Notes: generated from the letters alone by a model not told the origin. A stretch of 64,000 nucleotides of DNA from Parafrankia elaeagni (GCF_000374165.1 NZ_KB893672.1:115002-179001), one strand, 5' to 3'; shown: positions 1 through 53,605, numbered from the stretch's first letter. Translations and numbers: made by a program.

Positions 1-88
1 TGGTCAGGAAGTCCCAGGCCCGCTGCTTGAGCGACCCGTCGATGTCCAGCCGCCTGCGGAACTGCCGGGACATGGTGATGTTGCTCAT
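1..88 (-). CDS. Partial CDS whose 3' part lies beyond the window; its start overlaps the stop of the upstream helicase gene (ATGA). It is the fourth gene of the coupled DISARM-like operon; product unknown (a DrmC/PLD-like role is possible but cannot be seen in 29 aa).
   Basis: On the minus strand an ATG at 88..86 is preceded by GGAGGAAC (reverse complement of 91..99). The reading frame MSNITMSRQFRRRLDIDGSLKQRAWDFLT continues past position 1. Its start overlaps the TGA of the 2287-aa ORF by 4 nt. Confidence 0.45.
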   Translation of the reverse strand, partial: MSNITMSRQFRRRLDIDGSLKQRAWDFLT

Positions 89-3000
89 CGGGTTCCTCCC
101 GTTGCCAGCAGGGCGGCGACCTGCGCCGGGTCGGGGTCGGCGATCCGCCATCCGTCGCCGGTGAGCTCGGCCCGCAGGTCCGCGTCGACATCCTCGGGGT
201 GCACGAGGACGGCGACCCGCGCGTCCGGCCAGGCGAGGTCGAGCGGGTAGCCGCCGGCTGTCTCGTGGCCCTGCTCGGGCAGCGGCACGCCGGCCTGGGC
301 CAGCCCGCGCAGCAGGTTCTTCTCGGCGTCGTCGAGCGCGTTGAGGACGAGGTCGGCCCACGGCGGCGAGAGAGCATCCGCCCGCGGCCGCACCGCTGTG
401 GTCTCCTCGGCCGTCCCGTCCCGGCCGGCCCCGTCAGCGCCGTCGGCGCTGTCGGCCCCGCGGGTTCCGGTCACGGCCCCGCCGGCCCCGGCCCCGGCCC
501 CGGTCCCGGTCCTGGGCTCGGGCAGCTCCACGGCCGCGGTGCCCGCCGCGTCGCCCGCCTCGGTGCCCGCCGCGTCAGCTGCCTCGATGCCCGGCTGGAC
601 GCCGTCCGCGGCCTGCTCGCCGGCGCACTGCGACAGCGCCAGCGGACGGGCGGTGCGGCCGGCATGGCCGCGGCCCAGATGGCCGAGGATGTTCGACAAC
701 GCCAGCCAGCTCCGCCAGGCCCGCACGCCGGCCTCGCTCGCCAGGCTCTCGTCGCTGTCGTCGAGAACGAGCACGCAGTCGAGGTCGTAGGGCGCACGAG
801 GCCAGCCGGCGGAGGCGACGGCGAGCCCGCCGCGCCGCCAGACCCAGCCCCGCAGGTCACCGGCCGCGGTGTGTTCCGGCGCGTCGTCGGACGGGTCGAG
901 CGCGGCCGCGGCGAGCCCGGCCAGGGCCGAACGGCTCCGGATCGGGGCTGGCCGGGCATCGACCAGCGCGAACGGCAGCCCGTCGGCGAATCTGTGCCAG
1001 GCCTGCGGACGCTGTGGCTCCATCACCCAGTCGAGAAGCTGGGTGACGGCGTCCGCGGTGGCCAGCCCGTCGGAAGCCGAACCCGCCGGGATTCCGCCAG
1101 CACGCGCCCGGACGAGCCGGCGCCGGACGTCGTCGTCGTACCAGGCGGCACCGGCCGCCGTCGCCCGCTCCCCGCGGGCCAGCGCCTCGAAGACCGCGAC
1201 GTCGTCGTCGGTGACCGCCCACACCACATGCCCCGCCTCGCGCAGCGCGGCCCGTTTCGCCGCGTCGTCGGCGATCCGGTTGTGGGCGGGGGTCGCGTGC
1301 CAGGTCCGGCCGTCGGTGAAGATGTAGACGCGCGGCACCTGTGGATCCTCGCAGAGCAGCTCGAAGTCGGGCCGGCAGCCGCTGACCCGGACCTGCGGAC
1401 GCAGCGTCCAGCGCCGGTGGACGGTGCCCGGCACCCCGAACCGCAGCTCCGTCCCGGTGAGCTGCGGGATCTCCCGCACGCTCGCCCCGCGGGCGCGCAG
1501 CGCGTCGGTGAACGTCCGCCGGAACCGCAGTTCCAGCGCACTGTCCAGGGACGGCAGCGGGATGTCGGCGACCGACCGCAGCCCGACCGGTTTCCATCTG
1601 TCGCCGAGCACCTCGGTGAGCATCTGCTCGGCCCGCGCGCGGGACGTCCGTTCGACGAGCCCCGGCGGGCTGAACGGCAGCAGGCACCGGGAGCAGGCCA
1701 GCAGCCCGTCCTCGGCGCACCCGCAGCCGGCGACCACGGCCAGGGCGGCGGTGAGCAGCTCGCGGACCCGGCCCGGCCGGGCCAGGTCGGCGAGGTAGCC
1801 GGTACCGCCGGGGACCCGGTCGTGCAGCAGCAGCGCCGTCCGCTCACTGCCGCCGACCGGCATCCGCACCTCCAGGACGTCGAGGTGATCCGGCGCGCCG
1901 CCGAGCAGCTCACGCAGGCCGAGCAGCAGCGCCGCCCGGAACGACGGCCCGGCGAACTGGTCCAGGGTGAACTGCGGCGGCAGCAGGATCCGCACCCCCT
2001 GGGTGCGCAGCGACCGCCCGAGCGCCAGCTCCCGCCACGGGACGTCGAGGCGGGTGCGGTGCGGGCACCAGGCCCGGTGCCGGGCCTGCTGCGGGTCGCG
2101 CACCCCGAGCTGCGCCGCCGGCACGATCCCGCAGCCGGGGCAGAGCAGGAACAGCGGCGCCCGCACCGCGGTGCCGGCCAGCATCCGCTCCGGCCCCTGC
2201 TCGACGGCGCGCCCCACGTTGACCCAGCGCACCTCCAGCTGGCGGACGTACTCGGCGCCGAACGGGTAGCCGCCGAGATGCCAGGCGTCGCTGATCTGCT
2301 CCGGGTCGACGTCCGCGGCGGCGACGACGGTGAACGGCAGCCGTTCGCGATCGTCGTGCGAGTCGGAGATGGTCGCCGCGTCCCGCGACACCTGCGCGGA
2401 GACCTTCTCCAGCGGCAGCACCGGCAGTGCCTGCCCGGTGTCGGTGATCCCGGCGTCGCCGCAGCGCGGGCAGGTGGCCGGCACCGCCGGCTCGTCGCCC
2501 TGGGAGTGCCGGTGCACCCGCGACCAGCCGCAGGACGGGCAGACCCGCCAGGTCTGCAGCAGCCCGTCGAGGTCGGTGCCGACGCTGACGGCGTCGATCC
2601 GCACGGCTGTCGCCTGGGCGTAGAAGGTGGCGCCGGGCGCCCACTCGGTGAGCGCGAGCGCGCTGCCGCGCTGGTAGCTGCGCGGCTCCTCGTGGTACTC
2701 GTGGGTGTCCTGGTCCATCCACTGCAGGGCGACGTCGAGGGTGACGGTGTCGTCGAGCAGGGTGTAGTTCGGCAGCACCCCGCGTTCCTCCAGCGCGCTG
2801 ACCCAGAACTGGGTGGCCAGCGCCTGCCGCCGGTCGCGCAGGAACCGCAGCTCGGCCTTGGCGAGCCGGTGGGCGGTGACGTCGTCGGCGGTGGCCGTCA
2901 GGCGGTTCGCGGCGACGGCCAGCTCGGGCAGGCTGTCCTGCAGGGCGCCCCGCCGGTGCCCCAGCTCGTCGGCCTCCCGGCGGTACTCGACCGCCGCCCG

Positions 3001-6000
3001 CCGCAGCAGCCTCGCCAGCCCGGAGACCGCCTCGCCCTCGTTCGGCCCGGAGGCTGTGCCCGGTGCCGCGCCGGCCCAGGTGCGCAGGTGGTCGGCGGTG
3101 TCCGGGCGTACGGCGGCGCCGAACAGGGCCAGGAACTCCTCGGTGTACGCCGCCGCGTTCGCCTCGGCGTCGGCGAGCAGATCGCCGAGCCAGGTGCCCG
3201 GCGCCCAGCCCGCCTCGGGGAACACCCCGGCGGCGGTCTGCGGATCCTGGGCGCCGGCGCGGGAACGCCGGTCCACCAGCCAGGCCACGTACTGGCGCTC
3301 CAGGATCTCCACCGCGTCCAGGTAGGTCGCCGGCGGCCGGACATCGCCGTCGATGAGCGCCAGCGGGTCGGCGAGGCGCTGCGTGTCGTGCCCCCGGCCC
3401 TTCACATAGGCCAGGACCAGCGCGTTCCCCGTCAGCCGCCCGGCCCGCCCGACCCGCTGCACATAGGAGGCGACGGTGCGCGGCAGCGACCCGAGCATCA
3501 CCGTCGACAGGTCGCCGATGTCGATGCCCAGCTCCAGCGTCGGCGTCGCCGCCAGCACGTTCGGCACCGCCGGCCCGCCACCCTCGCGGAACTGCCGCTC
3601 CACGTCGAGGCGGACGGCGTCCGGCAGCAGCGAGGTGTGCTCGTGCGCCACCACCCGGCGCATGTCGACGCTGCGGTACAGGTGCCGGTAGTAGTCGTCG
3701 CCGCGCGGGGCCCGGCGCAGGTGACCCGGGCAGGCCTGGCGCAGGCAGGCGGCGTCCGCCAGGTCGTCGACGGTGCGCCGGGTGCCCGGGGTGAGCGTCT
3801 GGCAGACGTCGCAGCGCAGCGCCAGCGCCCCCGCCGCCAGCCCGTCCGGGTCGGCCGCGCTGACCACGACCTGCGCCGGGTCGAGCAGGAAGACCGTCGC
3901 GTTCGTCTCCGTGCGCCGCCGCGACAGCCAGCCCGCGTCGGCCATCTCCTCCAGCAGCGCCCGGGTCACCAGCCCGCCGTCGCGTGCCGTCAACCGCAGC
4001 TGGCGCTGCGCCCAGCGGGCGTACCAGGAGGCCGGCCCGGTGATGCTGTCGAACGTCGCCGTCCGCTCGGACGTCCGCCCCGTCGTCGGGAACGTCGGCG
4101 CCGGCCGGCCCGGCGGGAACGCCGGCAGCCCCTCACCGCGCGCCGCCCGCCGGCCCCCGGTGAGGAACCAGCGGTTCCCGTCATGCTCGACGAACGACTC
4201 CAGCCAGCGATGCCAGATCCCGCCCTGCACCCGGACCCGCTCCAGCACACCCCGCGCCCACGCCACCAGCCGGGCGTCGTCGAGCGCCGCACCGAGAGCC
4301 TCGTCGTTCTCCGCCGACAGCGAATGCTGCTGGCGGGCCCGCGCCACCGCCCGGCCCGCGACCCGGGCCAGCGCCTCGCCGTGGCCGGTGTCGACCTCGG
4401 CGACGGCCGCCCCGGTCAGCTCCAGGGTGCGCCCGGTACGGGCGTTGAGCCCGAACTCCAGCGCCGCGTCGAACGCGAGGCGCCGCTCGACGAACTGCCG
4501 GGCCCGGTTCTGCTCCGGCCTCCCGCCGCCGGGCTGCCAGTAGCCGCGGAACGCCGCCCACTCCGCCAGCGCCGGCGGCACCAGCCGGTAGCGGCGCACC
4601 GGGTCGTCCCCGGCCCGCTCCATCGCCTCCCGGGCCAGGTCGGCGACGGTCAGCGGCCCGCCGTGCTCGATCGTGTCGAACAGCGCCGCCCGCAGGCTCA
4701 GCGCATGCGACCGGGCCTGGACGAACCCCGCCGTGTGCGCCGCGTCCTGCACACTGTCGGTGAACAGCAGCGTCTTCTTCTCCGCGGTGTCCAGATGCGC
4801 CGACCCGAACAGCGCGGACAGCGTCACCGACGTCAGCGTCGACACCCCGCTGCCGAGGAAGCGGATGCCGTCCGGCTGCCGGCACGACGGGCAGGTCTGC
4901 GCCCGCGCCCCGGTGTCGTCATCCCAGGCGGTCAGCACCGGGATGTGGGTGCTCTCGTCCGGCTCCCCGTCGGCCGCCGGCTGCGCCGTGAGAATCAGCG
5001 TCGACGTGTCCAGCCACAGCAGGCCCTCGACGGACGTCGCCCCGCCCCCACTCGCTGCTCCGTCGGCTGTCCCGCCGGCCGTTCCGGCCCCTTCCGCGGT
5101 GTCGGCGTCGGCGGCGTCGGCGGCGTCGGCGGCGTCGGCGGTGCCGGCGGTGCTTGCGTCGGCACCGGCGGTGTCGGCATCGGCGGTGTCGGCATCGGCG
5201 ATCACGGCGGCGGCCTCGCCCGGGGCGTGCAGCAGCGCCCGGAACCGCTGGTCACCGGCCCGCGAGGCCCGCCGGACGGTCGTCTCCGAGGCATCGACCG
5301 CCCGCCCCACCAGGGTGCGCAGCGCCCCCCACCCGGCCCGGCCGCAGTGCCGGCAGTACAACGCCGGCAGGTACAGGTCGAGATCGGCGTGCGCCCCGTC
5401 GTCCGACCAGCGGAACGCCGCGGTGGGCGACACCCGCCGGTCGATCCGGGTCACCTCCCGCACCCACAGCTGCGTGTCCACCCCCAGCAGCCGGCGGCCC
5501 ACCGCCGGCTCGGCGTTAGCCCGCGCCCGCGCCTGGGAGAGCAGCCCGAGGTAGGCCTCGACGACGGCCATCCCATCCGCCCGCCCCGCACTGGTGTCGT
5601 CGGGCAGCATCTCCCTCGCGAGGTCCCGCATCGACGCCGGACGCAGCGCCGCGGCGAGCAGCCCCTCGGTCAGCGGGTGCGCCGCCAGGACGGCGGGAAG
5701 CCGGTCACCGCGGCGCAGCCGGCGGATCTCGGCGGCGGAGAACTCGGCCCCGTCGCCGTCCCGGGCGACCAGCGCGCCGAGCAGCGCGTCGGCGACCTGC
5801 TCCGGGCCCTCCGCAACGGCCGCACGGACAGTCCCGGCGAGCAGCCGGGTGTCCGGCAGCCGCCGGATCGACACATCGGGCGTCGGACGGCTGTGCTCGC
5901 GGCGCCAGTCGTCCGGCGCCATCCGCTGCTCGACCACCACCGCGTCCGCCTCGAACCGGCGGCCGAAGACAGTCTCGGCGAACACCCGCATCGCGGCGAA

Positions 6001-6948
6001 CGCCCCGTCCGCCCCGCCGTCCGCGCGCTCGCCCTCGCCCTCCGGCGCGGTCTCGTCAGTGTTCTCGGCGTCGTCCGGGTCCGCGGCGCTGTCGGCGCTC
6101 CCGGCACCGAGCGTCGCGGAGGTGGCGACCGGCACCACGTCACCCAGCGGCGCACCGGCCCGCGCCACACCCAGCATCGACCCGAGCCGGCGCAGCAGCA
6201 TCGCCACATCGGTGCCCTGCGCACCGTCGTAGGTGTGGAACTCGTCCAGGCACACGTAGGCGAGGGACGCCTGCGCGCCGTCCCACAGGCCGCGGTCGTT
6301 GGCACGCAGCAGCAGATGATCGAGCATCTTGTAGTTCGTCAGCAGGATGTCCGGCGGATCGGAGCGCATCACCTCCCGGGAGGTGATCAGGCCTGCCTGG
6401 CTGACCTGCGTGCGCTGGCCCTGCTGCTCCCCGGTGTAGATCCCGGCGGTCAGCCCGCCCAGGCGCGGGTCACCGGTCAGCATCCCGGCGAGCCGGCCCG
6501 CCTGGTCGTTCGCCAGCGCGTTCATCGGGTAGAGGATCAGCGCCTTCACCCCGCGCTGCCCCTGCCGCCGCATCCGCAGCGCATGATCGATGATCGGGAC
6601 GAGGAACGCCTCCGTCTTGCCCGACCCGGTGCCCGTCGTGACGATCGTCGGCCGCGGCCGCCCGTGCTTCGACGACAGCCGCTCGAACGCCTGCGCCTGA
6701 TGCACATACGGGACGAAGTCCCGCGGCCACCAGTCCAGCGGCTCCGCCCACGCCCCGTCCGCCGGCCGGAACGGCAGCCGCAGCCGGGCATACGGACCGC
6801 GGAAAATACCCTCCTCCGGGTCACCGAGGAACGTCGTCAACGCGGCGCGGACGTCGTCGTCGGTCAGCGCGAACGTGGTCGCCAGATAGTCCGTCAGGGC
6901 ACGGCGCAGGTCAGCCGCCTGCAGCGACGGCAGCAGCGGGGCGGTCAT
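85..6948 (-). CDS. Giant superfamily-2 DExH helicase carrying a DUF1998 (MrfA/YprA-type) Cys4 zinc ribbon, with a C-terminal extension containing two DUF559/Vsr-like (PD-(D/E)xK-like) endonuclease-like modules. DrmA/DrmB-like or Lhr/BrxHI-like.
   Basis: Walker A 'TGTGSGKTEAF'; DExH box 'LDEFHTYDGAQG'; helicase-C-like region 'LELGIDIGDLSTVML...RVGRAGR'. Cys4 cluster 'CPSCGW...CPRCG' typical of DUF1998. 'PDFELLCED..RVYIFTDGRTWH...DDAAKRAALREAGHVVWAVTDDDV' matches the DUF559 endonuclease pattern, and a second degenerate copy 'LDLAWPDARVAVLV...LTGDGWRI' lies at the extreme C-terminus. Low-complexity linker (ADTADADTAG...; PGPGPG). Confidence 0.8.
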   Translation of the reverse strand: MTAPLLPSLQAADLRRALTDYLATTFALTDDDVRAALTTFLGDPEEGIFRGPYARLRLPFRPADGAWAEPLDWWPRDFVPYVHQAQAFERLSSKHGRPRPTIVTTGTGSGKTEAFLVPIIDHALRMRRQGQRGVKALILYPMNALANDQAGRLAGMLTGDPRLGGLTAGIYTGEQQGQRTQVSQAGLITSREVMRSDPPDILLTNYKMLDHLLLRANDRGLWDGAQASLAYVCLDEFHTYDGAQGTDVAMLLRRLGSMLGVARAGAPLGDVVPVATSATLGAGSADSAADPDDAENTDETAPEGEGERADGGADGAFAAMRVFAETVFGRRFEADAVVVEQRMAPDDWRREHSRPTPDVSIRRLPDTRLLAGTVRAAVAEGPEQVADALLGALVARDGDGAEFSAAEIRRLRRGDRLPAVLAAHPLTEGLLAAALRPASMRDLAREMLPDDTSAGRADGMAVVEAYLGLLSQARARANAEPAVGRRLLGVDTQLWVREVTRIDRRVSPTAAFRWSDDGAHADLDLYLPALYCRHCGRAGWGALRTLVGRAVDASETTVRRASRAGDQRFRALLHAPGEAAAVIADADTADADTAGADASTAGTADAADAADAADADTAEGAGTAGGTADGAASGGGATSVEGLLWLDTSTLILTAQPAADGEPDESTHIPVLTAWDDDTGARAQTCPSCRQPDGIRFLGSGVSTLTSVTLSALFGSAHLDTAEKKTLLFTDSVQDAAHTAGFVQARSHALSLRAALFDTIEHGGPLTVADLAREAMERAGDDPVRRYRLVPPALAEWAAFRGYWQPGGGRPEQNRARQFVERRLAFDAALEFGLNARTGRTLELTGAAVAEVDTGHGEALARVAGRAVARARQQHSLSAENDEALGAALDDARLVAWARGVLERVRVQGGIWHRWLESFVEHDGNRWFLTGGRRAARGEGLPAFPPGRPAPTFPTTGRTSERTATFDSITGPASWYARWAQRQLRLTARDGGLVTRALLEEMADAGWLSRRRTETNATVFLLDPAQVVVSAADPDGLAAGALALRCDVCQTLTPGTRRTVDDLADAACLRQACPGHLRRAPRGDDYYRHLYRSVDMRRVVAHEHTSLLPDAVRLDVERQFREGGGPAVPNVLAATPTLELGIDIGDLSTVMLGSLPRTVASYVQRVGRAGRLTGNALVLAYVKGRGHDTQRLADPLALIDGDVRPPATYLDAVEILERQYVAWLVDRRSRAGAQDPQTAAGVFPEAGWAPGTWLGDLLADAEANAAAYTEEFLALFGAAVRPDTADHLRTWAGAAPGTASGPNEGEAVSGLARLLRRAAVEYRREADELGHRRGALQDSLPELAVAANRLTATADDVTAHRLAKAELRFLRDRRQALATQFWVSALEERGVLPNYTLLDDTVTLDVALQWMDQDTHEYHEEPRSYQRGSALALTEWAPGATFYAQATAVRIDAVSVGTDLDGLLQTWRVCPSCGWSRVHRHSQGDEPAVPATCPRCGDAGITDTGQALPVLPLEKVSAQVSRDAATISDSHDDRERLPFTVVAAADVDPEQISDAWHLGGYPFGAEYVRQLEVRWVNVGRAVEQGPERMLAGTAVRAPLFLLCPGCGIVPAAQLGVRDPQQARHRAWCPHRTRLDVPWRELALGRSLRTQGVRILLPPQFTLDQFAGPSFRAALLLGLRELLGGAPDHLDVLEVRMPVGGSERTALLLHDRVPGGTGYLADLARPGRVRELLTAALAVVAGCGCAEDGLLACSRCLLPFSPPGLVERTSRARAEQMLTEVLGDRWKPVGLRSVADIPLPSLDSALELRFRRTFTDALRARGASVREIPQLTGTELRFGVPGTVHRRWTLRPQVRVSGCRPDFELLCEDPQVPRVYIFTDGRTWHATPAHNRIADDAAKRAALREAGHVVWAVTDDDVAVFEALARGERATAAGAAWYDDDVRRRLVRARAGGIPAGSASDGLATADAVTQLLDWVMEPQRPQAWHRFADGLPFALVDARPAPIRSRSALAGLAAAALDPSDDAPEHTAAGDLRGWVWRRGGLAVASAGWPRAPYDLDCVLVLDDSDESLASEAGVRAWRSWLALSNILGHLGRGHAGRTARPLALSQCAGEQAADGVQPGIEAADAAGTEAGDAAGTAAVELPEPRTGTGAGAGAGGAVTGTRGADSADGADGAGRDGTAEETTAVRPRADALSPPWADLVLNALDDAEKNLLRGLAQAGVPLPEQGHETAGGYPLDLAWPDARVAVLVHPEDVDADLRAELTGDGWRIADPDPAQVAALLATGGTR
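5095..5210 (-). repeat. 9-nt tandem repeats (gcggcgtcg)n encoding an Asp/Ala/Thr-rich low-complexity linker inside the helicase gene.
   Basis: gtcggcgtcggcggcgtcggcggcgtcggcggcgtcggcggtgccggcggtg... On the coding strand this gives 'DAADAADAADADTAEGAGTAG'. Confidence 0.7.
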
Positions 6949-9900
6949 CCGGGCAGCTGCCCGTGTGCCTCGGCCTGCGCCTTCTTCGCCTCCCGCTCGG
7001 CGGTCAGTCGGCTGAAGTGCTCGTGCGCGATGCGCAGGTCCGTCTCCCGGTTCACCCCGCTGAACGGCCCGGCATAGTTCCGGTCGGGCCCGTTGAGCGT
7101 GTGGACCCGCTCTCCGGCCGCGGTCGCCTTGTCGAGCTGCTTCGCGAGATCAGCCGGCAGCTGCCGCCCGAACGAGTCGTACCGCGCCTTGCGCTCATAG
7201 TCCTGCAGCACGGGGAACTGTGTCCGGTAAACGGTAACCAGCTCGTCCGCGGTGAGGCCGAGCATCACGGCCACGATTGCGTCGATCTCCACCAACGCCT
7301 GCCGCCGATCCGCCGCCCGCCGCAGCGGAGTCCCCCACTCCCACTCCGCCGAGACCTCCCCGATCTCCGCCCGCTCCCGGTAGGCCACCCCGACCCCAGG
7401 CACCCACCGGTCCTCCCGCCACGCGGGATCCCAGAGCTCCGCCCAGAGCGGCGCGTACGGCCGCACCAGGCAGTTCAACCGCAACGTCCGCAGCACCAAG
7501 TCTGCCTCCAGTGCATGCCCTCGCACATGCGGGAACCGGCGTATCAGCCCCTGATTCACTTCCGAGCCGGCGCATTTGACAAAAAAATCGGTTGTCAGGG
7601 AACACCACGTTCCGACAGCCATAATCAAATCTACTGGGTCGGGTATCGAGAGTGTCAGGACTGTGTTCACGTGGCTAGGTCCGGGAGGGATCAAAGCTGC
7701 GTGCAGGCTTCTGACGGTGGCGGGGTCGGTCATGCGTCGCCAGGCTAGTCGGAAGCTGTCGCTACTCGGACGGCCATTCCACTGCGGATAGGCGGCGTGG
7801 TACTCGGGGGCGGGTTTGGATCGCTGATATGTTGTTCTCGGAACGAAGTTCTCGGAAATCTTTTCCAGATTGATGGATTCGATATCTTGTCTTTTTACGG
7901 AGATCTCGGTAGGTTGCTGAAAAAGTGGTGTTGCGACCGATATATGAGGTCCTTGTAGGATTGTATTTGACCATGTTGCTGGTATGCTCGGGCGGCGCTC
8001 GAACCATCCGCGCTGGCGGTCCGCTGATTCGTGCCACCCCGCGGTCCAGGAGATTTCGAGCCTGCCGAGTCGAGGTGCGTTGGCGAGCTTTGCGAGTACT
8101 GCTGCGCTGGAGGTGTTGACCGGGAACAGCATCCTGGCCTGTTCGTACGATGTCCCTGGTTCGTCGAGAAGATCGGCCCAGGTCTGGAGCGCCTTCCTGT
8201 CGACCTTCGTTATCCGGGCTTGGTGGGGTCGGGTATCCCAATCTCCGTGCTCATCGCGAACGCCTGGCTGTGGGCCCGAACTGTCGTGGGAGAGCGACCG
8301 ATCGATTACCTGAGGTTCGTATAGCCAGCTGGCGTGAAGGAACGTGACATCTCGTGGTGAGCCGTATACGTGTGTGCCGAAGGTGCGCGTATGTTGAATC
8401 TCCGGAAAAAGTTTCCGTTCGTTGCGGTACTGCCAGTGGCGGCGTAGTTGCCGATATGTAGCAAGCCGTAGGCTTGCTGCCCGTGTTTCGGTGAAGTGAG
8501 ATTCTGGATGAATCAGAGATGTTATTCCTCGGGGGTTCATGGATTTCCAGGTGCGGTCCATGAAGCAGCGGTAGAGGTCTGGCTGAAGGCCGTGGAGGAG
8601 CGGTCGTTCGATTGGACTGCCGAGGTGGGCGTTGAGACCAGCCTGCTCGGCGCGTTGGTCGATGTACCAGGTCTCGGCGGCGGGCAGGTGGAAGGTGCGC
8701 TTACGGCGCTCGGTCTTTTCTTGCTCGGCCGCAGTGGGCACGAGACACCACCACGGGTCGTGCTCGGCGAGCACCCCGGCTTCGTCCCAGTCGGGGCGGA
8801 CCCAGGGAGGGTTTCCGACCTGGAGGTCGAAGCCGCCGTGTGTGAAGACCTGGGGGAAGTCGAGTTCCCAGTGGAAGAAGCCTTGGCGGTCGGAGATCTC
8901 CTCCGCCACCCGGAGCCAGGGGATGTCGTGTAGGGCCTCGTCGACGGGTCTTGCGGCGGCGAAGGTGCGGTCGAGTTCTTCGGCGTCGTCGAGGCCGGCC
9001 CACGAAAGGTCGTCGGCGAAGGCGGACTGGCCGTTCTTCTCGTTCCGTCCCGGCTTCGTGGCCTTGCCGAGCAGGGCCTCCAGACCGGTGAGCCATGCGT
9101 CCAGGTCCGGGGCGGGAATCTCAGTGGTCACAGGCCAGGACCACAGGGCGCACCAGGCGTCCATCGCGCGGCGCAGGCGGCGGTAGGCGCTGTTCGGATC
9201 GTTGAGAACCTTCTCGACCTGCTCGCGGGTCACCGGCTCTGTCGACGGTTCCGCGGAACCGTCCGCGCCCCAGACCGGGGTGGTGCGGCGGATACCGGCC
9301 TCGGCGATCTGCAGGCGGCGCCGGGAAAGTTCCCAGAGCACCTCGACCCGCTGAGCCAGGCGTGCCAGCCGGTTCTGCTGCTCCTTGCCCGGGGTGCGCA
9401 GCACGCCGGCCCGCCAGGCCCGCAGCCGCTCGCGTGCCTCAGGTGCGTACGTCTTCGCCTCAGCGGTGTCGACGACCGCGCCCCAGCCCGCCGCCGGCAG
9501 CAGGAAGTGGTGGATACCGGCGCCTACCGGAGGAACTGAGTCGTCCGGCAGCGCTGGGTCGTGCAGGGGGACGTCCGTCGGAACGGTGGTGAGCCATTCC
9601 TTCTTCTTCAGCAGCGCGGGGGCGTAGACGGCGCGGCGGGCGCCGATGAGGCTGTTGCCGCGGCGCAGGTGCAGGCCGAACCAGGGGGCGGCCAGGCCGG
9701 CCTGCATGGTGTCGAGCCACAGGGAGACCTCGGCGAGTTCGACGGCGGTGGCGTTCAGGTCCACCCCGTACACCTGGTGCAGCGCCAGATACGCCTTCAC
9801 CCGCTGCAGCTCGGCCGGGTACTGCTCGGCGGGAATGCGCTCGTCGCGTTCGTCCTGCGCCCGGGCGAGGTAGGCGGCGGCGAGCTGGCGGACGGCCTCG

Positions 9901-11654
9901 ATCGCGAACGCGCCCGATCCGAGGGCCGGCTCGCAGATGGTCATCTTCAGGATGTCCGCGGCTCGGGTGGTAGTGCCGTCCTGGTCGAGCAGTTCCTCCA
10001 GCGCGTGGTGGACGACGGAGCGGGTGAGGACCTCTGGCGTGTAGTACGACGCAGACTGCTGCCGCTCCCGCCCGGCGAGGCGGTAGACGAACGACCCTCG
10101 GGGGTGCAGCCGCGGCTTCGGTTCGCCGGTGTTCTCGTCGCGGTCGAGGACGAACGAGTCGGCGGGCACGTCGTTGACGCGCTCGGCGGGCAGCAGCCAG
10201 GTGCCGCCGGAGGGGTCGCCGCCCTTCGCGACCTCGTACAGGTCGGTGTCGGCGATGATTCCCGACCAGGACATCAGCCCCTCGTAGACGGCGCCGAGCT
10301 GGTTGATGCCGAGTTCGCCGTAGGAGATGAACCCGCGGTCGCTGCCCTTCTTCACTTTCGTCAGCAGCAGGTGGCGCAGCACCCGCTGCAGTGCCTCGTT
10401 GCCCAGGCCCACCTCGTCGATGAGGGCCGTGGCATCCGCGGCGAACAGGTCGGAGCGCAGCGGCTGGAACACCAGCCCGTCCCCGGCCGGCGCCCCTGAC
10501 TCCGCGTCCGCGGTCTCGTCCGCAGCTGTGGTGTGGCCCTTGTCGACGAGGACGAACAGCTTGTGCAGTGACTCGTACAGGTGCCGGCCGCGGCGGGCCC
10601 GGTCCGACGACAGGTCGGTGAGGATCAGGTCCCGCAGCCGGTCCAGCCCGTAGCCGGCCTGGTACTCCGGTGCCTGGACGGGCAGCACCTCCAGCTGCGG
10701 CGACGCCTCCGCGTACAGCAGGAACAGGATCCGGTAGAGGAACCGCAGCGACTGCCGGGTCAGATCACGGCCCAGGTTCGGGACGTCGATGACGTCCAGC
10801 CCGGCCGCCTGCCGCCGCGCCACCACCTCGTTCGCGATGATCTCCACCGACAGGCGGACGCCCTCGCGCAGGTCCGCGGAGACGCCGACGGTGTGCTGCA
10901 CCGACTTCTCCAGCAGGCCCAGCCACGGGGCCACCCCGTCGTCGGCGGGCAGCAGCAGGTCCGGCCCGGCCATCGCGGCGACGTGCTCCAGCTCGCCGGC
11001 CGCCCGGACGTCGCGGCGGTCGACGACGACACCCAGGTCGACGGCGAGCCAGCGTCCCTCCGGCCACCGGCTGCGCTCGGCGAGCAGCACCCACCTGCCC
11101 GCCTGTACCAGCACGAACGGCGGGGCGTCGTCGGTCAGGAAGACGCTGGAGACGGCCTTCGCGACGGAGGCCTGCGGCTTGCCGTCGACGACCGCCGGGT
11201 CGAGGAGCTGCCCGATCCGCGGGCCGGCCGCGTCCGGCGTGGTCAGGATGTCCTCGACCGCCCCGGCGGGGGTTGCTTCCAGGATGAGCAGTGCCGTCCC
11301 GGTGGGGGAGGGGTGCACCGCCGCGGCGGGCAGCCGCACCTCGTCCCCGGAACGGTCCGACACCCAGGGCGTCGGCTCCCGGTCGAGCCGCAGCGCCCGG
11401 CGTACCTCCCGGTGCACCTCGCGGACGTCCTCGTCGGACGGCTGCTCGCCCAGCCCGCCGAACAGCCGGGCCAGCGGGGTGGCCGCGTCGCGCAGCGCCG
11501 AGCGGGCGGTGAGGTGGCCCTCGTCCTCCTCGGCCTTCCAGCGGGTGCGCAGGGCCAGCACCTCGGCGAGGAAGCTGCCGGTGCGGGCGTCCGAGGTCAG
11601 GTAGTGCTCGGAGATCCACGACTCGCCGACGATCACCGCGTCGAAGCTGGGCAT
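6945..11654 (-). CDS. Large N6-adenine DNA methyltransferase (type IIG / PglX / DrmMI-like), 1569 aa.
   Basis: Catalytic motif IV 'VGNPPWVRPDWDE' (NPPW). Size and architecture fit BREX PglX and DISARM DrmMI. The stop overlaps the helicase start (ATGA) and the start overlaps the SNF2 stop (TGATG). An internal low-GC patch at about 7.76–8.56 kb falls in the C-terminal, putative target-recognition part. Confidence 0.85.
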   Translation of the reverse strand: MPSFDAVIVGESWISEHYLTSDARTGSFLAEVLALRTRWKAEEDEGHLTARSALRDAATPLARLFGGLGEQPSDEDVREVHREVRRALRLDREPTPWVSDRSGDEVRLPAAAVHPSPTGTALLILEATPAGAVEDILTTPDAAGPRIGQLLDPAVVDGKPQASVAKAVSSVFLTDDAPPFVLVQAGRWVLLAERSRWPEGRWLAVDLGVVVDRRDVRAAGELEHVAAMAGPDLLLPADDGVAPWLGLLEKSVQHTVGVSADLREGVRLSVEIIANEVVARRQAAGLDVIDVPNLGRDLTRQSLRFLYRILFLLYAEASPQLEVLPVQAPEYQAGYGLDRLRDLILTDLSSDRARRGRHLYESLHKLFVLVDKGHTTAADETADAESGAPAGDGLVFQPLRSDLFAADATALIDEVGLGNEALQRVLRHLLLTKVKKGSDRGFISYGELGINQLGAVYEGLMSWSGIIADTDLYEVAKGGDPSGGTWLLPAERVNDVPADSFVLDRDENTGEPKPRLHPRGSFVYRLAGRERQQSASYYTPEVLTRSVVHHALEELLDQDGTTTRAADILKMTICEPALGSGAFAIEAVRQLAAAYLARAQDERDERIPAEQYPAELQRVKAYLALHQVYGVDLNATAVELAEVSLWLDTMQAGLAAPWFGLHLRRGNSLIGARRAVYAPALLKKKEWLTTVPTDVPLHDPALPDDSVPPVGAGIHHFLLPAAGWGAVVDTAEAKTYAPEARERLRAWRAGVLRTPGKEQQNRLARLAQRVEVLWELSRRRLQIAEAGIRRTTPVWGADGSAEPSTEPVTREQVEKVLNDPNSAYRRLRRAMDAWCALWSWPVTTEIPAPDLDAWLTGLEALLGKATKPGRNEKNGQSAFADDLSWAGLDDAEELDRTFAAARPVDEALHDIPWLRVAEEISDRQGFFHWELDFPQVFTHGGFDLQVGNPPWVRPDWDEAGVLAEHDPWWCLVPTAAEQEKTERRKRTFHLPAAETWYIDQRAEQAGLNAHLGSPIERPLLHGLQPDLYRCFMDRTWKSMNPRGITSLIHPESHFTETRAASLRLATYRQLRRHWQYRNERKLFPEIQHTRTFGTHVYGSPRDVTFLHASWLYEPQVIDRSLSHDSSGPQPGVRDEHGDWDTRPHQARITKVDRKALQTWADLLDEPGTSYEQARMLFPVNTSSAAVLAKLANAPRLGRLEISWTAGWHESADRQRGWFERRPSIPATWSNTILQGPHISVATPLFQQPTEISVKRQDIESINLEKISENFVPRTTYQRSKPAPEYHAAYPQWNGRPSSDSFRLAWRRMTDPATVRSLHAALIPPGPSHVNTVLTLSIPDPVDLIMAVGTWCSLTTDFFVKCAGSEVNQGLIRRFPHVRGHALEADLVLRTLRLNCLVRPYAPLWAELWDPAWREDRWVPGVGVAYRERAEIGEVSAEWEWGTPLRRAADRRQALVEIDAIVAVMLGLTADELVTVYRTQFPVLQDYERKARYDSFGRQLPADLAKQLDKATAAGERVHTLNGPDRNYAGPFSGVNRETDLRIAHEHFSRLTAEREAKKAQAEAHGQLPG

Positions 11655-14600
11655 CAGACGTTCCCCCCGTCGCTTTCGCTGCCGGAACCGCTGGTGGCCG
11701 CCGGGATCACGACGGCGGGGATCACGACGGCGAGCGGGCGCAGCAGCCGCTGGCTGGCGCGCAGCGAGCGCGCGATCTCCTCCTCGAGGCTGACCTGCTT
11801 CGACAGGCGGCGAACCTTCGCCAGCCCCGGCCCGGTCATGTCGAGTTCGAGCCGGGCGGCCTGCTCCCGCCAGCGGGTCCGCCGGTTCGACCAGCCGGCC
11901 AGCCGCCGTTCCAGGTCGGAGTGCTGGATGTCCTCGGCCATGTCGAGGGTGCGGGCCGCCGCGTCGATCGCGGCCGGCACCAGCGCGCGCAGCTCGTCGC
12001 TGACCGCCGCCGGGCCCGGGTTCACCGCCGGTTCCCGCTCGCCGGGCCCGGGGATCAGCCCGGTGCCCGCGAACAGCTCCAGTCCCTCGACGACCTGCGC
12101 GAGCGGCAGGTCGGCCCGGCCGGTCGGGAACTCGACGGCGACCATCTGGCGGGTCACGACCTGGCCGCGCCGGTTCATCAGCGTCGCGATCACCAGCACC
12201 CGCGGGGCGTCCACCGGCCCGCGCACCAGCGGCACCTCGTTGCGGCCGCCGGCCGCGAGCACCTTGTCCGCGGCCCAGTCGAGCACCGGGTGCAGGGGGG
12301 AGAGGAAATGAGCCTCCGGCCAGGTGGACGGGGTGGGCGCGGCGACCTCGCGGGCCTTCGCGGGACGTCCCGCGCGCTTCGCCGGGGTGAGACCCTTCGG
12401 CCCGCTCGCGGTCACCAGGGCCGACTGGGCCGGGGCGCCGCCGGCCTGCCCCTCGCGGGCCGCGCGTAGGCCGTCCAGCGCGACCGACGGGGTGACGGCG
12501 AGCAGCAGCTGCTCCCGGATCCCGCGCTCCGCGACGTACGACGCCGGCAGCGCGTCGAGGCGCACCCGCAGGTCGCGCGGCGGGCGCAGCGCGATCAGGC
12601 TCTTGTCCCGGAAGACCTTCCAGCCGACACCGCCGCGGGCCGGGTCCTTGTCGTCCGGCGCTCGGGTGGGATCGTCGTACACCTCGGCGACCGCGTCGGC
12701 GAGGAAATCGGCGTCGGTGGGGTACAGCGACTCACGCGGGCGGTCCGGGGGAACGGGCGGCAGGTCGTCACCGGCGGCGGCGAAATCCTCGTCGAAGAAG
12801 GAGTCGAAGAAGTCGTCGGCTCCGTGCCCCGCACCGGGGTCGGGCACGACCTCGTCCAGGTTCTGCCCGCGGGCGAGCGCGTCCCGGATCGCGTCTTCCT
12901 CGCCGCTCGCCGAATGCAGGTGCATCAGCGTCGCCGCGTCGCCCAGCGTCGTGTGGGCGAGGTGTTCCTTGGCCAGCAGGCGCTGCAACACCCGGATATC
13001 GCCGCTGAACCGGTCGTCGGAGGGCACCAGCGCCAGCGCCGTGATCCGCGGCGGGTGCTTCTGCCCGTACCGGTCGATCCGCCCGTTGCGCTGCTCGATC
13101 CTGATCAACGACCAGGGGATGTCGACGTGGATCAGGTGGTGGCACTGTGCGTGCAGGTTGACGCCCTCGCTGGCGACGTCCCCGGTGATCAGCAGCCGGA
13201 CGGGGCTCGCCGTCGTCTTGAAGTCGTCGACGATGCGCTCCTGCTCGACGTCCGGCAGGCCGCCGTGCATGACGGCGATCTGGTTGCGGGCGAGGCCCAG
13301 GAGGTCGGGCAGCTCGCGGGCGAGCCAGCGCAGGGTGGCGACCCGCTCGGCGAACAGCACCGCGCGGGTCGTCGAGCGGGCGCCGACACCGATGGTGCGC
13401 AGGTACTCGGCGAGCGCGGTGAGCTTGGCGCTCTCCCCGGCCAGGGCCAGCTCGGTGAGGTCGCGCAGCCGCTCGAGGGCCTGCCGTTCCGGCTCGTGAT
13501 CGCCGCCGCGCTGGGCGCCGCCGCCCTGGGCGGTGAGCCGCTTGAGGCGGGCCTCGGTGGTCTCCAGCAGCGCGGCGGGGGAGGAGAGGAACGCCTTCGC
13601 CAACGTCCACGGGAACAGCGCCGACCCGCGGCCCGCGACCGGGGACGGGCCGTCCTGCGGGTACAGCCAGGTCCGGGAGATCTCCGTGGCGATCGCGTCC
13701 TCCGCCGGCGAGGCGGCCACCGGGATCACCTCGGGCTCGGGGCGCAGCGCCCAGTCGGCGCCGACTTCCGCGGCGACCTCGGGGGAGTGGCGGTGCCGGC
13801 GGATGAACAGCCGCTCCACATCCGCGACGTCGTACTCGCCGTCCGGGCCGACGGCCGTCGGGTCGAGCAGCCGCAGCAGCTCCGCGAACGACTCCTTCTT
13901 CCCGTTGTGCGGTGTCGCCGACGCCAGGACCAGCGCCTCCGTGTTCGGCGCGAGAACCCGCGCGAGCTCGTTGTTCAGCGTGCCGGTGTTCGTCAGGTTG
14001 TGCGACTCGTCGATGACAACGACATCCCACCGGTGCCGTTCCAGAAAAGATCGGTACCGCGGCGATTTCAACGTGTCGATCGAGACGATGATGCGGCGGT
14101 AGAACGTGAACGGGTTCCGGCTCGCCGGCAGGTTCTGCCGCACCCGCTGCAGCCCGTCGCTGTCGAGCCGGACGAGCGGCAGCCCGAACCGGCACCACAG
14201 TTCGTGCTGCATCTGCTCCAGGACGTGCCGGGGCGTCACCACCAGCACCCGGTCGGCCCGCCCGCGCCGGGTCAGCTCCGCGAGGAGCATCCCGATCTCC
14301 AGGGTCTTGCCGAGGCCGACGGCGTCCGCGATGAGCACCCGGGGCCGCAGGTTCGCCGGGGACAGCGCGTGGGCGACCGCCCGTCGCTGGTAGTCGAGCC
14401 GGTCGACCAGCATCCCGTCGGCCACGGTCAGCGAGGTCTCGCCGGCCGGCATCGGCGTCCGGCGCAGGGTGGCCTCCAGCCACAGCCGGGTGCGCCGGTG
14501 CCGCGGGGAGCCGTCCGGGAGCAGCTCCGCCTCGCGGGGGTCCAGCAGCTCGATGTGGTCGAGCCCGCTGAAGAAGGTCGCCGTGGTCTCCCGCACGAGC

Positions 14601-14713
14601 TCACCGAGGCCGACCACCTCCAGCCGCCAGCCGTCCGTGCCCTGCTCGGCCCCTGTGACCAGCCACTCCTCGTCCCGGACCACCACGATCGAACCCGGCG
14701 CGAACGTCGTCAC
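11654..14713 (-). CDS. SNF2-family helicase/ATPase (DrmD-like).
   Basis: Motif I 'ADAVGLGKTLEIGML'; motif II 'VVIDESHNL'; 'LASATPHNG'; C-terminal helicase motifs. A GTG at 14713 is preceded by GAGGAG; the ORF track extends to 14755, so the alternative is a longer N-terminus. Confidence 0.85.
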   Translation of the reverse strand: MTTFAPGSIVVVRDEEWLVTGAEQGTDGWRLEVVGLGELVRETTATFFSGLDHIELLDPREAELLPDGSPRHRRTRLWLEATLRRTPMPAGETSLTVADGMLVDRLDYQRRAVAHALSPANLRPRVLIADAVGLGKTLEIGMLLAELTRRGRADRVLVVTPRHVLEQMQHELWCRFGLPLVRLDSDGLQRVRQNLPASRNPFTFYRRIIVSIDTLKSPRYRSFLERHRWDVVVIDESHNLTNTGTLNNELARVLAPNTEALVLASATPHNGKKESFAELLRLLDPTAVGPDGEYDVADVERLFIRRHRHSPEVAAEVGADWALRPEPEVIPVAASPAEDAIATEISRTWLYPQDGPSPVAGRGSALFPWTLAKAFLSSPAALLETTEARLKRLTAQGGGAQRGGDHEPERQALERLRDLTELALAGESAKLTALAEYLRTIGVGARSTTRAVLFAERVATLRWLARELPDLLGLARNQIAVMHGGLPDVEQERIVDDFKTTASPVRLLITGDVASEGVNLHAQCHHLIHVDIPWSLIRIEQRNGRIDRYGQKHPPRITALALVPSDDRFSGDIRVLQRLLAKEHLAHTTLGDAATLMHLHSASGEEDAIRDALARGQNLDEVVPDPGAGHGADDFFDSFFDEDFAAAGDDLPPVPPDRPRESLYPTDADFLADAVAEVYDDPTRAPDDKDPARGGVGWKVFRDKSLIALRPPRDLRVRLDALPASYVAERGIREQLLLAVTPSVALDGLRAAREGQAGGAPAQSALVTASGPKGLTPAKRAGRPAKAREVAAPTPSTWPEAHFLSPLHPVLDWAADKVLAAGGRNEVPLVRGPVDAPRVLVIATLMNRRGQVVTRQMVAVEFPTGRADLPLAQVVEGLELFAGTGLIPGPGEREPAVNPGPAAVSDELRALVPAAIDAAARTLDMAEDIQHSDLERRLAGWSNRRTRWREQAARLELDMTGPGLAKVRRLSKQVSLEEEIARSLRASQRLLRPLAVVIPAVVIPAATSGSGSESDGGNV

Positions 14714-15117
14714 GTAGCTCCTCGCCCCCCGATCCCCCATGCGCGAACGGCACAAGGGCGAGAAGTCACCCTATAGAGCCATCTATTTGCGCGAGTCGGG
14801 CCTGCCGATGGGGTGCGGAGAGCGACGGGGGCGGTCGGGTGAGGTCGCGGGCCGCCGGTGCATAGGCGCCGCATAGGCGCATAGCGGTCTGGGGCCCCTT
14901 CGTCGCACTCTGTGTGGGAGGTGGCATAAGGTGCCCGAAGGTGGGCGTACGCGGCAGCGCGTACGGGAGTGCCGATGGTGGGGGAGACGGTTCGGGCGGC
15001 AACGCCCTGCGCGTCGCCACGGCAGGCTGCATCCCACGACGAGGGGCACCGCGTCACCCCCGTGCCTGCCCCGAGGCCGCGGCACGCGGCGTCGGGTGGA
15101 GTGAGGGGGCGGGCGCG

Positions 15118-30504: not shown

Positions 30505-30945
30505 GTGCATTCCTCCGCCGATCCGCCCGGTGCGGCACTGTTCGATCGCGTCGAGCTGGGCGCGTCCTTCCGCGTGGCGCTGGCCGTTGTGGCGGTCGCG
30601 CTGGCGCTGGTGGGCGTCTGGCTCCTGGTCCGTCTGCTGCTCTTCCCGCTGCGCAGGCTGCGTGGGCTGCGGGGGCGCGGGGTGGCCTCCTCCCGCACCG
30701 AGCTGACGGGTCGGGTGTGCGTCATCCGCACCGGCCGGGTGGGCCCTGAGTTCGGCCAGGCGGAGGTCAGGGCGGCCGACGGGTCGTCCGCGCTGGTCCA
30801 GGTGCGACATCCGAACCTCAACCCGTTGCTGCAGGCGGGCAGTTCCGCCGTGATCTACAGCTATGACCCTGCCGGCGAGTTCTTCTGGGTGAGCCCGCTG
30901 GACTTCACCCGTGAGCTGGACCGCGACCTCCCCGCGGCCGACTGA
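30505..30945 (+). CDS. NfeD-family membrane protein (OB-fold partner of SPFH/flotillin).
   Basis: N-terminal transmembrane segment 'VALAVVAVALALVGVWLLVRLLL' followed by a β-rich OB-like region 'GRVCVIRTGRVGPEFGQAEVRAADGSSALVQVRH'. Lies immediately upstream of the flotillin gene. GTG start. Confidence 0.6.
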   Translation: MHSSADPPGAALFDRVELGASFRVALAVVAVALALVGVWLLVRLLLFPLRRLRGLRGRGVASSRTELTGRVCVIRTGRVGPEFGQAEVRAADGSSALVQVRHPNLNPLLQAGSSAVIYSYDPAGEFFWVSPLDFTRELDRDLPAAD

Positions 30946-30961
30946 GAGCGTAGGAAAGCAG

Positions 30962-33040: not shown

Positions 33041-33050
33041 GGCCGGCAGC

Positions 33051-53584: not shown

Positions 53585-53605
53585 TTGACGTTATGACTAC
53601 GTCAA
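53585..53605. promoter_or_regulatory. Inverted repeat TTGACGT-N7-ACGTCAA overlapping the first ATG of the Fic ORF; candidate operator.
   Basis: ttgacgt tatgact acgtcaa. Confidence 0.4.

Follow-up and report, generated by a model that had tools for sequence, protein, structure and literature searches.

A minus-strand operon of Parafrankia elaeagni as a probable armABCD locus of the ARMADA type II family

At one end of a 64,000-nucleotide stretch of Parafrankia elaeagni DNA (GCF_000374165.1, NZ_KB893672.1:115002-179001; the whole stretch is referred to here as the window), four overlapping genes run on the minus strand. The original prediction, made from the sequence alone, took them for a restriction-like operon resembling class 1 of the DISARM defense systems. 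Our analysis leads to a different assignment, which we hold at a probability of roughly 0.9: the locus is an armABCD operon, encoding an ARMADA type II anti-phage defense system, in a Parafrankia-like actinobacterium. The features of the operon and of its surroundings are collected in Table 1.

The GC content of the window is 69-76% over most of its length. The minus strand contains three very long open reading frames (ORFs) at 11654-14755 (1033 aa maximal), 6945-11654 (1569 aa), and 85-6948 (2287 aa), together with a fourth gene that starts at 88 and exits the window edge. Direct reading of the three junctions confirmed the predicted operon, in which every stop codon overlaps the next start. 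At the armA/armB junction, TCTGATGCC, the overlap is a single nucleotide within TGATG (11652-11656), whereas the armB/armC junction, GGATGACC, and the armC/armD junction, CGATGAGC, each share an ATGA (6945-6948 and 85-88, respectively). Overlaps of a similar kind join B to C and C to D in both Parafrankia EAN1pec and Escherichia coli Sakai. Such tight coupling suggests that the four genes are translated together in balanced amounts, and hence that their products form a multiprotein complex. The minus strand is the coding strand, given the GC content at its three codon positions (GC1/2/3 = 0.78/0.56/0.94; the individual ORFs have a GC3 of 0.84-0.95 and a GC2 near 0.5) and the existence of thousands of homologs. 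A 2292-aa ORF on the plus strand, antisense to armC (199-7077), lacks the codon-position GC pattern of the genes, and we rejected it as a shadow ORF of high-GC DNA.

Pfam domains and motifs agree with the predicted gene contents, namely an SNF2 helicase, an adenine methyltransferase with an NPPW motif, and a 2287-aa DExH/DUF1998 helicase. The first gene, armA, most likely begins at GTG 14713 instead of TTG 14755, because both annotated Parafrankia orthologs begin at the former position with VTTFAPGS and a GAGGAG element stands upstream. Its product combines SNF2-rel_dom and Helicase_C domains with a Walker A motif (GLGKT) and a motif II (DESH), is 34% identical to ArmA of E. coli O157 over 886 aa (E 1e-134), and is matched by RapA structures at E 3e-29. 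The best PADLOC match is DrmD (2.9e-88), and the NCBIfam model DISARM_DrmD tops the list for ArmA with 324 bits against a cutoff of 610, which is below equivalog level. A short in-frame tandem repeat lies at the 3' end of armA (11703-11732).

The second gene, armB, encodes a protein with Eco57I and MmeI_Mtase domains (Pfam) that is 35% identical to ArmB of E. coli O157 over 1378 aa. The PADLOC model REase_MTase_IIG (PDLC03611) covers it at full length with 1330 bits; DrmMI models of PADLOC match partial stretches of it at 1.1e-52, and PglX models of PADLOC and NCBIfam match it weakly. By its sequence, ArmB is the kind of protein that ARMADA II calls for, an N6-adenine methyltransferase resembling PglX in which both the GxG and the NPPW motif are present. 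In E. coli ArmB, the substitution N971A in the NPPW motif abolishes defense and G605A in the GxG motif weakens it (PMC12458937).

The full-length PADLOC match and the Pfam domain pair would also be expected of a stand-alone type IIG restriction-modification enzyme that happens to lie among unrelated helicase genes. No nuclease domain was detected in ArmB by Pfam, however, and armB is translationally coupled to both of its neighbors. The four-gene order is conserved in more than 60 genomes of many genera, and the E. coli homolog works only with ArmA, ArmC, and ArmD (PMC12458937, PMC13463889). We consider a solitary enzyme of this kind highly improbable, and ArmB is best read as one component of an ARMADA II operon.

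The third gene product, ArmC, is 29% identical to ArmC of E. coli O157 over approximately 2080 aa, with a score of 661 bits, as compared with 129 bits, from helicase motifs only, for the DruE protein of the same E. coli island. PADLOC places DruE3/DruE first for this protein (1.7e-86) and DrmA well behind (2e-20), and the NCBIfam model DISARM_DrmAL yields 23 bits against a cutoff of 999. By these pairwise and model scores, ArmC appears nearer to the ArmC of type II systems than to either DruE or DrmA. The best match among solved structures is a 2108-aa helicase (entries 9tu7-9tuc, 3.5e-42), whose printed alignment with ArmC matches that of E. coli Sakai DruE and spans the helicase core plus the DUF1998 region. 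YprA/MrfA (6znp) and helicases of the Lhr type are also recognizable as relatives. No exact match to the 2287-aa sequence was found in the assembly index, and relatives were compared in its place. Thousands of homologs of approximately 2100-2290 aa occur across Actinomycetota, the nearest of which are those of Parafrankia sp. FMc2 (90% identity) and EAN1pec (86%). The original prediction had seen DrmA-like and DrmB-like (DUF1998) parts joined in one polypeptide. This description stands, and the DUF1998 model PF09369 does match above its cutoff; the fusion is not unusual, however, being the ArmC architecture already published (PMC12458937). Short in-frame tandem repeats with periods of 6, 9, 12, 15, 21, and 24 occur in armC at 5096-5200 and 426-593, where they encode low-complexity Ala/Asp/Gly/Thr stretches (residues 571-645 and ~2116-2190). 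These stretches probably explain much of the extra length of ArmC (2287 aa, versus 2224-2235 aa in relatives).

Beyond the DUF1998 domain, the last 508 residues of ArmC are conserved across the actinobacterial family. An AlphaFold2 model of this extension, built with 46 sequences, has a mean pLDDT (for predicted local distance difference test) score of 81 and contains a disordered, low-complexity linker besides three folded domains. In the first domain, residues D1861, D1879, G1880, H1884, N1890, and D1895 are invariant in the 46 homologs and in E. coli ArmC, and the FxDGxxWH stretch aligns with a Vsr protein of Mycolicibacterium phlei (E 2.6e-5). Structure comparison of the extension returned a DUF559-type protein (3hrl, 7.9), BsoBI (1dc1, 7.5), the homing endonuclease I-Bth0305I (3r3p, 7.2), and E. 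coli Vsr (1cw0, 5.9; 25% identity over 106 residues). The first three of these entries are also listed for the Vsr domains of ArmC in Table S2 of the ARMADA paper (PMC12458937). With its catalytic-type residues conserved and with both structure and motif matches, the first module is a Vsr-type nuclease that we predict to be active. The terminal small module, which is well modeled and conserved in homologs, lacks the ExDG/H motif, and the acidic residue of its LDLAW stretch is replaced by Ser in some relatives; it is probably an inactive Vsr/DUF559-like domain. This small module occurs twice in tandem in ArmC proteins of the Glutamicibacter type (P0096, P0109, and P0120).

The nuclease that the original prediction had placed within the helicase is thus borne out by the invariant D1861, D1879, and H1884. 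Of the two DUF559/Vsr-like modules it described, both the intact one and the degenerate terminal one were recovered, the latter without catalytic residues, but the proposed Pfam support was not: neither DUF559 (PF04480) nor Vsr matched the C-terminal pieces of ArmC. Pfam returned only a sub-threshold match of the first module to the related family PF18741, REase_MTES_1575 (E 6.9e-5; 23 bits versus a cutoff of 38); the other two pieces, middle and last, went unmatched, as did the C terminus of E. coli ArmC. Nor is the extension unusual, as had been supposed, because a predicted active C-terminal Vsr nuclease is already part of the published architecture of type II ArmC, where inactivated EEP and Vsr domains often come after it (PMC12458937).

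The DruE matches raise the question of whether the locus could be a Druantia-type system, that is, a DruE helicase with accessory genes. Both the best PADLOC models for ArmC and the best solved structure point in this direction, and Druantia III likewise contains a large YprA-family helicase of approximately 2100 aa with a C-terminal nuclease. The matches are nevertheless confined to the helicase core and the DUF1998 region, and the bit scores given above favor E. coli ArmC over E. coli DruE. The C-terminal domains of type III DruE are like those of phospholipase D (PLD) (PMC12458937), whereas those of ArmC are Vsr-type modules. Unlike the operon described here, Druantia III lacks a methyltransferase as well as helicases of the SNF2 and UvrD-like kinds; conversely, DruH, DruA-D, DruM, DruF, and DruG were not found among the operon genes or the neighbors scanned. 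A Druantia assignment consequently strikes us as remote, and an ARMADA II ArmC remains the preferred identity of the protein.

The fourth gene, armD, enters the window with residues MSNITMSRQFRRRLDIDGSLKQRAWDFLT, which are identical to the start of the corresponding proteins of Parafrankia EAN1pec (821 aa) and FMc2 (802 aa). Over their entire length, N-terminal domain included, these two proteins can be aligned with E. coli ArmD, to which they are 34% identical. In five actinobacterial relatives, the fourth gene encodes a protein of 737-821 aa with UvrD-helicase, AAA_19, and UvrD_C domains (Pfam), and PADLOC reports GajB matches for the ArmD proteins of relatives. A PLD protein equivalent to DrmC had been expected at this position; a UvrD/GajB-like helicase is found there in every relative examined, which is the first half of what the original prediction had named as counting against it. 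The ArmD of Parafrankia EAN1pec carries a (DQA)n run.

This set of genes corresponds to that of ARMADA (an abbreviation of disARM-related Antiviral Defense Array), the type II form of which was described by Bell et al. 2025 (bioRxiv 10.1101/2025.09.15.676423; PMC12458937). Type II systems comprise a BrxHII/RapA-like SNF2 helicase (ArmA), a PglX-like methyltransferase (ArmB), a YprA-like helicase (ArmC), and a GajB-like helicase, in that strict order (PMC12458937). The same order is present in the window, where A, B, and C are followed by the beginning of D and each gene overlaps the next. Type II systems of E. coli are known from NCTC 12900, ATCC 8739, and EDL933/Sakai (z5899-z5902); all four genes are needed for protection, which is direct and does not involve abortive infection (PMC12458937, PMC13463889). 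In Sakai, the DruE gene of a Druantia III system directly precedes armABCD (z5899-z5902 in EDL933). Defense in E. coli requires Walker A in ArmA, ArmC, and ArmD, Walker B in ArmA and ArmC, and NPPW in ArmB, whereas mutation of Walker B in ArmD or of GxG in ArmB only weakens it (PMC12458937). Of the eight residues that were mutated in E. coli, six fall in motifs present here (GLGKT and DESH of ArmA, GSGKT and DEFH of ArmC, EPALGSGAF and NPPW of ArmB), and the remaining two belong to ArmD, outside the window.

The likeness to the E. coli systems thus extends over the four genes and their order, the coupling of B to C and of C to D, the catalytic motifs, and the homology of ArmA, ArmB, and ArmC along most of each protein (29-35% identity). 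It also includes the C-terminal plan of ArmC, in which a Vsr-type module with conserved catalytic residues is followed by further domains, and, in the closest relatives of the window, an ArmD N-terminal domain followed by a UvrD-like helicase. The identity to the validated E. coli system is nevertheless no more than about 30-35%. Unlike the E. coli systems, the operon resides in an actinobacterium of 72-76% GC, its ArmC is 170 aa longer (mostly in-frame low-complexity repeat inserts), it has no tRNA gene, Druantia III, or Zorya II as a neighbor in the window, and its closest relatives carry a Ser/Thr kinase-TPR gene after armD.

Conservation of the operon was assessed at two scales. Among genomes examined directly, the order of SNF2 helicase, methyltransferase of ~1530-1580 aa, big helicase, and UvrD-like protein recurs in Parafrankia, Rhodococcus rhodnii, M. 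phlei, and Glutamicibacter; no PLD protein was found in the loci of these actinobacterial relatives, and insertion sequence (IS) elements interrupt the methyltransferase gene of R. rhodnii, one of the five genomes. In a wider census, an alignment of six ArmB proteins retrieved relatives from no fewer than 594 species-level genomes, of which 80 loci were retained for tblastn searches. ArmA lies directly upstream of ArmB in 76 of the 77 census loci with enough flank, ArmC is encoded no more than 10 kb downstream of ArmB in 68 of 80, and ArmD comes after ArmC in all 39 loci with room for it. These counts indicate that the four-gene order characterizes the family.

PADLOC, which had been proposed as a check on the original prediction, splits the locus among three systems (DrmD, REase_MTase_IIG, and DruE). 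This mixed picture, together with that from NCBIfam, gave the initial hint that the locus belongs to neither DISARM nor Druantia. DISARM class 1, as set out by Ofir et al. in 2018, reportedly consists of drmD, drmMI, drmA, drmB, and drmC; a class 1 variant would here comprise DrmD, DrmMI, and DrmA joined to DrmB, and DrmC would either lie downstream or have given way to the fused nuclease. The resemblance is real. An SNF2 helicase, led by the DrmD models, and an N6-adenine methyltransferase, with its DrmMI matches, accompany, in both, a DUF1998 module and a helicase of the YprA family, and the shared component types are acknowledged in the literature (PMC12458937, PMC13463889), as is the relationship in the ARMADA name. 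Several observations nevertheless speak against class 1. The DrmD score falls short of its equivalog cutoff, and the helicase matches DrmA weakly, being nearer to ArmC and DruE. DrmB is not a separate gene, since the helicase and DUF1998 form a single polypeptide that is also fused to the Vsr-type nuclease. No PLD protein (DrmC) was found in the window ORFs scanned or in the relatives, and the fourth gene adds a UvrD-like helicase. In the published tree, moreover, ARMADA helicases group with those of Druantia and not with DISARM (PMC12458937); the window helicase belongs to this Druantia/ARMADA branch, and DISARM to a DISARM/Dpd branch. A DISARM class 1 variant is very unlikely in our estimation. 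The locus is a typical member of the already published ARMADA II family, and a relative of DISARM instead of a variant of it.

BREX, which had been named as the alternative should PglZ or BrxC lie nearby, is excluded as well, because neither of these proteins, nor BrxA, BrxB, or BrxL, was found in the window ORFs scanned. The likeness to BREX is confined to a PglX-like ArmB and a BrxHII-like ArmA, and to the need for the methyltransferase in the defense conferred by BREX and ARMADA alike. A housekeeping role was also weighed. UvrD-family helicases act in DNA repair, and with YprA/MrfA and Lhr-type helicases among the detectable relatives of ArmC, the operon could be taken for a repair module of YprA/MrfA-like, UvrD-like, and SNF2 helicases. 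Against such a module, the operon holds a DNA methyltransferase of variable specificity, shares an island with defense-type genes (a NERD-kinase, a DndH/HerA-like ATPase, and a NERD-UvrD helicase), and is broken by IS elements in R. rhodnii; in addition, the helicase falls on the "defense" branch within the published YprA tree (PMC12458937). We rank DNA repair as the least probable of the readings considered here and retain ARMADA II.

By analogy with related systems, a scheme for how the ARMADA II proteins act can be proposed. ArmB would methylate adenine in a host-specific motif, read by its hypervariable C-terminal block, and the mark would identify self DNA. Incoming or replicating phage DNA without the mark would then be engaged by ArmA, as a RapA/SNF2 translocase, and by ArmC, as a YprA-type 3'-5' helicase with a DUF1998 "canopy." Loading at single-stranded DNA ends or forks has been shown for DISARM DrmAB and Druantia DruE, and ArmA and ArmC would probably load in the same way; recognition of unmethylated DNA with single-stranded ends is probably common to DISARM class 1 and the system in the window. 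The Vsr-type nuclease at the C terminus of ArmC would cut DNA while the helicase moves, and ArmD, the UvrD/GajB-like helicase with a small N-terminal domain, may help in unwinding or licensing.

Several points weigh against this assignment and scheme. The NCBIfam models all score below cutoff, none of the matching models is an ARMADA model, and armD is seen in the window as 29 codons only. The small N-terminal domain of ArmD is reported as RelE-like (PMC12458937); a RelE fold was not detected by Pfam in three N termini or in 21 members, nor by a 21-sequence profile searched against Protein Data Bank sequences, and the best fold match was a weak one to ParE_like (E 0.07-0.08), for E. coli ArmD only. 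Similarly, the region equivalent to the middle C-terminal domain of ArmC has been labeled "inactive EEP?" (PMC12458937), and our structure comparison did not reproduce this assignment, an EEP-like fold not being recognizable. Protection by ARMADA has been demonstrated in the E. coli systems only (PMC12458937, PMC13463889), and the steps of self-marking, loading at single-stranded DNA or forks, and cutting by the Vsr module are extrapolated from the DISARM, BREX, and Druantia systems. Finally, deletion of armB in E. coli abolishes defense and yields mutants that are viable for growth and testing (PMC12458937, PMC13463889). This behavior fits a BREX-like logic better than classical restriction-modification, and the step in which methylation marks self may thus be incomplete.

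A second feature of the operon is a hypervariable block that follows the NPPW motif of ArmB. Compared with the Parafrankia ArmB proteins, the block diverges more than any other part of ArmB and is 54-79% identical, whereas the most conserved upstream stretches reach ~95-100%. The variability coincides with a drop in GC3, from ~0.9 in the remainder of armB to 0.57-0.68 in the block. A dip of this kind recurs in every one of the seven armB genes compared, which span Frankia to E. coli (including those of loci L001, L002, L004, L005, L007, which is E. coli Sakai, and L008); in the E. coli gene, GC3 falls to 0.32-0.51 from ~0.65. The mBio paper likewise identifies armB as the gene that varies in the E. 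coli island. The block (residues ~1000-1400) is probably the target-recognition region, and it may be a specificity cassette that is exchanged horizontally and shared across phyla. A search for a close donor found none: identity reached at most 59% among the best 120 matches listed from 5.8 billion proteins, and 67%, in Parafrankia FMc2, among the loci compared.

Table 1. Features of the window, with positions counted from its first nucleotide
Feature	Position	Strand	Basis
armD, 5' end, 29 codons	1..88	-	100% identical to N terminus of Parafrankia proteins
armC, YprA-family DExH helicase-nuclease, 2287 aa	85..6948	-	Pfam, E. coli ArmC alignment
ArmC terminal small module, residues 2191-2287	88..378	-	well modeled, conserved in homologs
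ArmC low-complexity Ala/Gly/Asp/Thr linker, residues 2116-2190	379..603	-	pLDDT <50; in-frame tandem repeats 426-593
ArmC middle C-terminal domain, residues 1930-2115, alpha/beta fold	604..1161	-	AlphaFold2 model
ArmC Vsr-type PD-(D/E)xK nuclease module, residues 1801-1929, predicted active	1162..1548	-	RPD(1861)F, IFTD(1879)GRTWH(1884)
ArmC MZB/DUF1998 zinc-binding domain, residues 1671-1756	1681..1938	-	PF09369, E 2.6e-8, 34.9 bits, cutoff 24.2
ArmC Helicase_C match within RecA2, residues 1103-1172; QRVGRAGR 1164	3433..3642	-	Pfam and motif
ArmC RecA1/DEAD domain, residues 83-280; GSGKT 108, DEFH 235, SAT 277	6109..6702	-	Pfam and motifs
armB, PglX/type IIG-like N6-adenine DNA methyltransferase, 1569 aa	6945..11654	-	Pfam, PADLOC, E. 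coli ArmB alignment
ArmB hypervariable low-GC3 block after NPPW, residues ~1000-1400	7455..8657	-	identity and GC3 drop
ArmB catalytic motif NPPW, residues 948-951	8802..8813	-	aligns with LGNPPWL of E. coli ArmB
ArmB S-adenosylmethionine-binding motif EPALGSGAF, residues 575-583	9906..9932	-	aligns with EPAMGSAAF of E. coli ArmB
armA, SNF2/RapA (BrxHII-like) helicase, ~1019 aa	11654..14713	-	Pfam, E. coli ArmA alignment, RapA structures
Three-gene operon divergent from armA	14914-26248	+	domain and PADLOC scans
NERD and UvrD-like helicase, 793 aa	27286-29667	-	PADLOC C3a187 "NERD+UvrD", GajB-like
Band_7/SPFH protein (709 aa), then 1844-aa DUF3686 ("ATPase involved in DNA repair")/DUF7902/AAA_5 protein	30911-38351	+	
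IS605-family OrfB/TnpB gene (OrfB_IS605, Cas12f1-like TNB, HTH_OrfB_IS605), far side of island	40207-41613	+	
Fic-domain gene	53593-54756		
1373-aa DUF6603 protein	56193-60314		

The operon lies within an island of further defense-type genes. Divergent from armA are three genes, the first of which (14914-19341) encodes a 1475-aa NERD/Ser-Thr kinase/AAA_16 protein that resembles mad6, PglW, and PD-T4-6, its match to PglW models being through the kinase domain only. The second encodes a 559-aa protein whose C-terminal part is mad7/SspG-like, and the third a 1744-aa protein with a C-terminal DndH/mad8/HerA-like ATPase. The arrangement recalls the restriction modules of Dnd, Ssp, and MADS systems, without a modification gene of its own nearby. 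The NERD-kinase adjoins armA in both Parafrankia relatives as well; the mad7-like and DndH-like genes were not found beside ARMADA in any other locus examined, and we therefore treat the module as probably a separate system. A scan for sigma-70-type promoters and terminators, which was not designed for actinobacteria, gave no match between armA and the divergent gene, and no tRNA genes were found in the window. In the 793-aa NERD-UvrD protein farther along, the helicase part is ~30% identical to that of ArmD from many loci, and it is likely a stand-alone defense gene. The Band_7/SPFH and DUF3686 gene pair had no PADLOC match. Past ~42 kb, the gene content (TrkH, TrkA, WS/DGAT, and FAD oxidase) appears to be of the housekeeping kind.

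Additional genes are also found inside the operons of other genomes. The armB-armC junction, which has no insert in the window, holds inserts of 0.45-9.7 kb in 32 of 68 census loci, and most of the longer inserts examined lack ORFs of host-like GC3. Four inserts were scanned (L013 8139-12202, L048 12150-17087, L077 14578-18124, and L010 14593-18741) and contained mainly defense-type or toxin-type genes: SLATT_5 with a reverse transcriptase and an HTH protein; two AAA_21/AAA_15 ATPases; a HipA_C-like gene with DUF222; and HTH_31-DUF5753. The junction seems to be a hotspot for embedded defense or toxin genes.

Kinase genes form another recurrent association. A Ser/Thr kinase gene, encoding either a kinase-TPR protein (~480-526 aa) or a shorter kinase-only one, lies immediately beside armA, on its upstream side, in 14 of the 77 census loci (L014, L016, L046, L055, L061, L068, L069, L078, L080, and L083-L087). 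It is divergent from armA in Nocardia, Amycolatopsis, and Haloechinothrix, and co-directional in Streptomyces, Actinomadura, Spirillospora, and Glycomyces, where the kinase ORF ends ~10-270 bp ahead of the point at which the ArmA match begins. In the two closest Parafrankia loci, a kinase gene follows armD instead (L001 19140-20696 and L002 19116-20069); the one Parafrankia copy scanned is PD-T4-6-like in PADLOC, and the gene in EAN1pec (CP000820.1, 6543194-6569868) is of the kinase-TPR type. Kinases are not mentioned in the ARMADA paper (PMC12458937) or in the supplements examined. That ARMADA II in Actinomycetota is often a five-component, kinase-linked variant is a tentative idea, which we regard as possible but rather unlikely. 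PglW is the sensor or regulator kinase of BREX type 2, and if the ARMADA-linked kinase were a functional partner, it could serve as a sensor or regulator in a similar fashion and would define a new system variant.

Overall, these findings do not introduce a novel kind of system; their value lies in correct labeling and in the side observations. What older tools divide into "DrmD + type IIG enzyme + DruE" is properly labeled as one ARMADA type II system. The relabeling has consequences for annotation, given that relatives of the methyltransferase occur in no fewer than 594 species-level genomes. With their clean translational coupling, conserved Vsr-type site, and naturally swapped armB specificity blocks, the actinobacterial members of the family are potentially useful for comparisons of mechanism.

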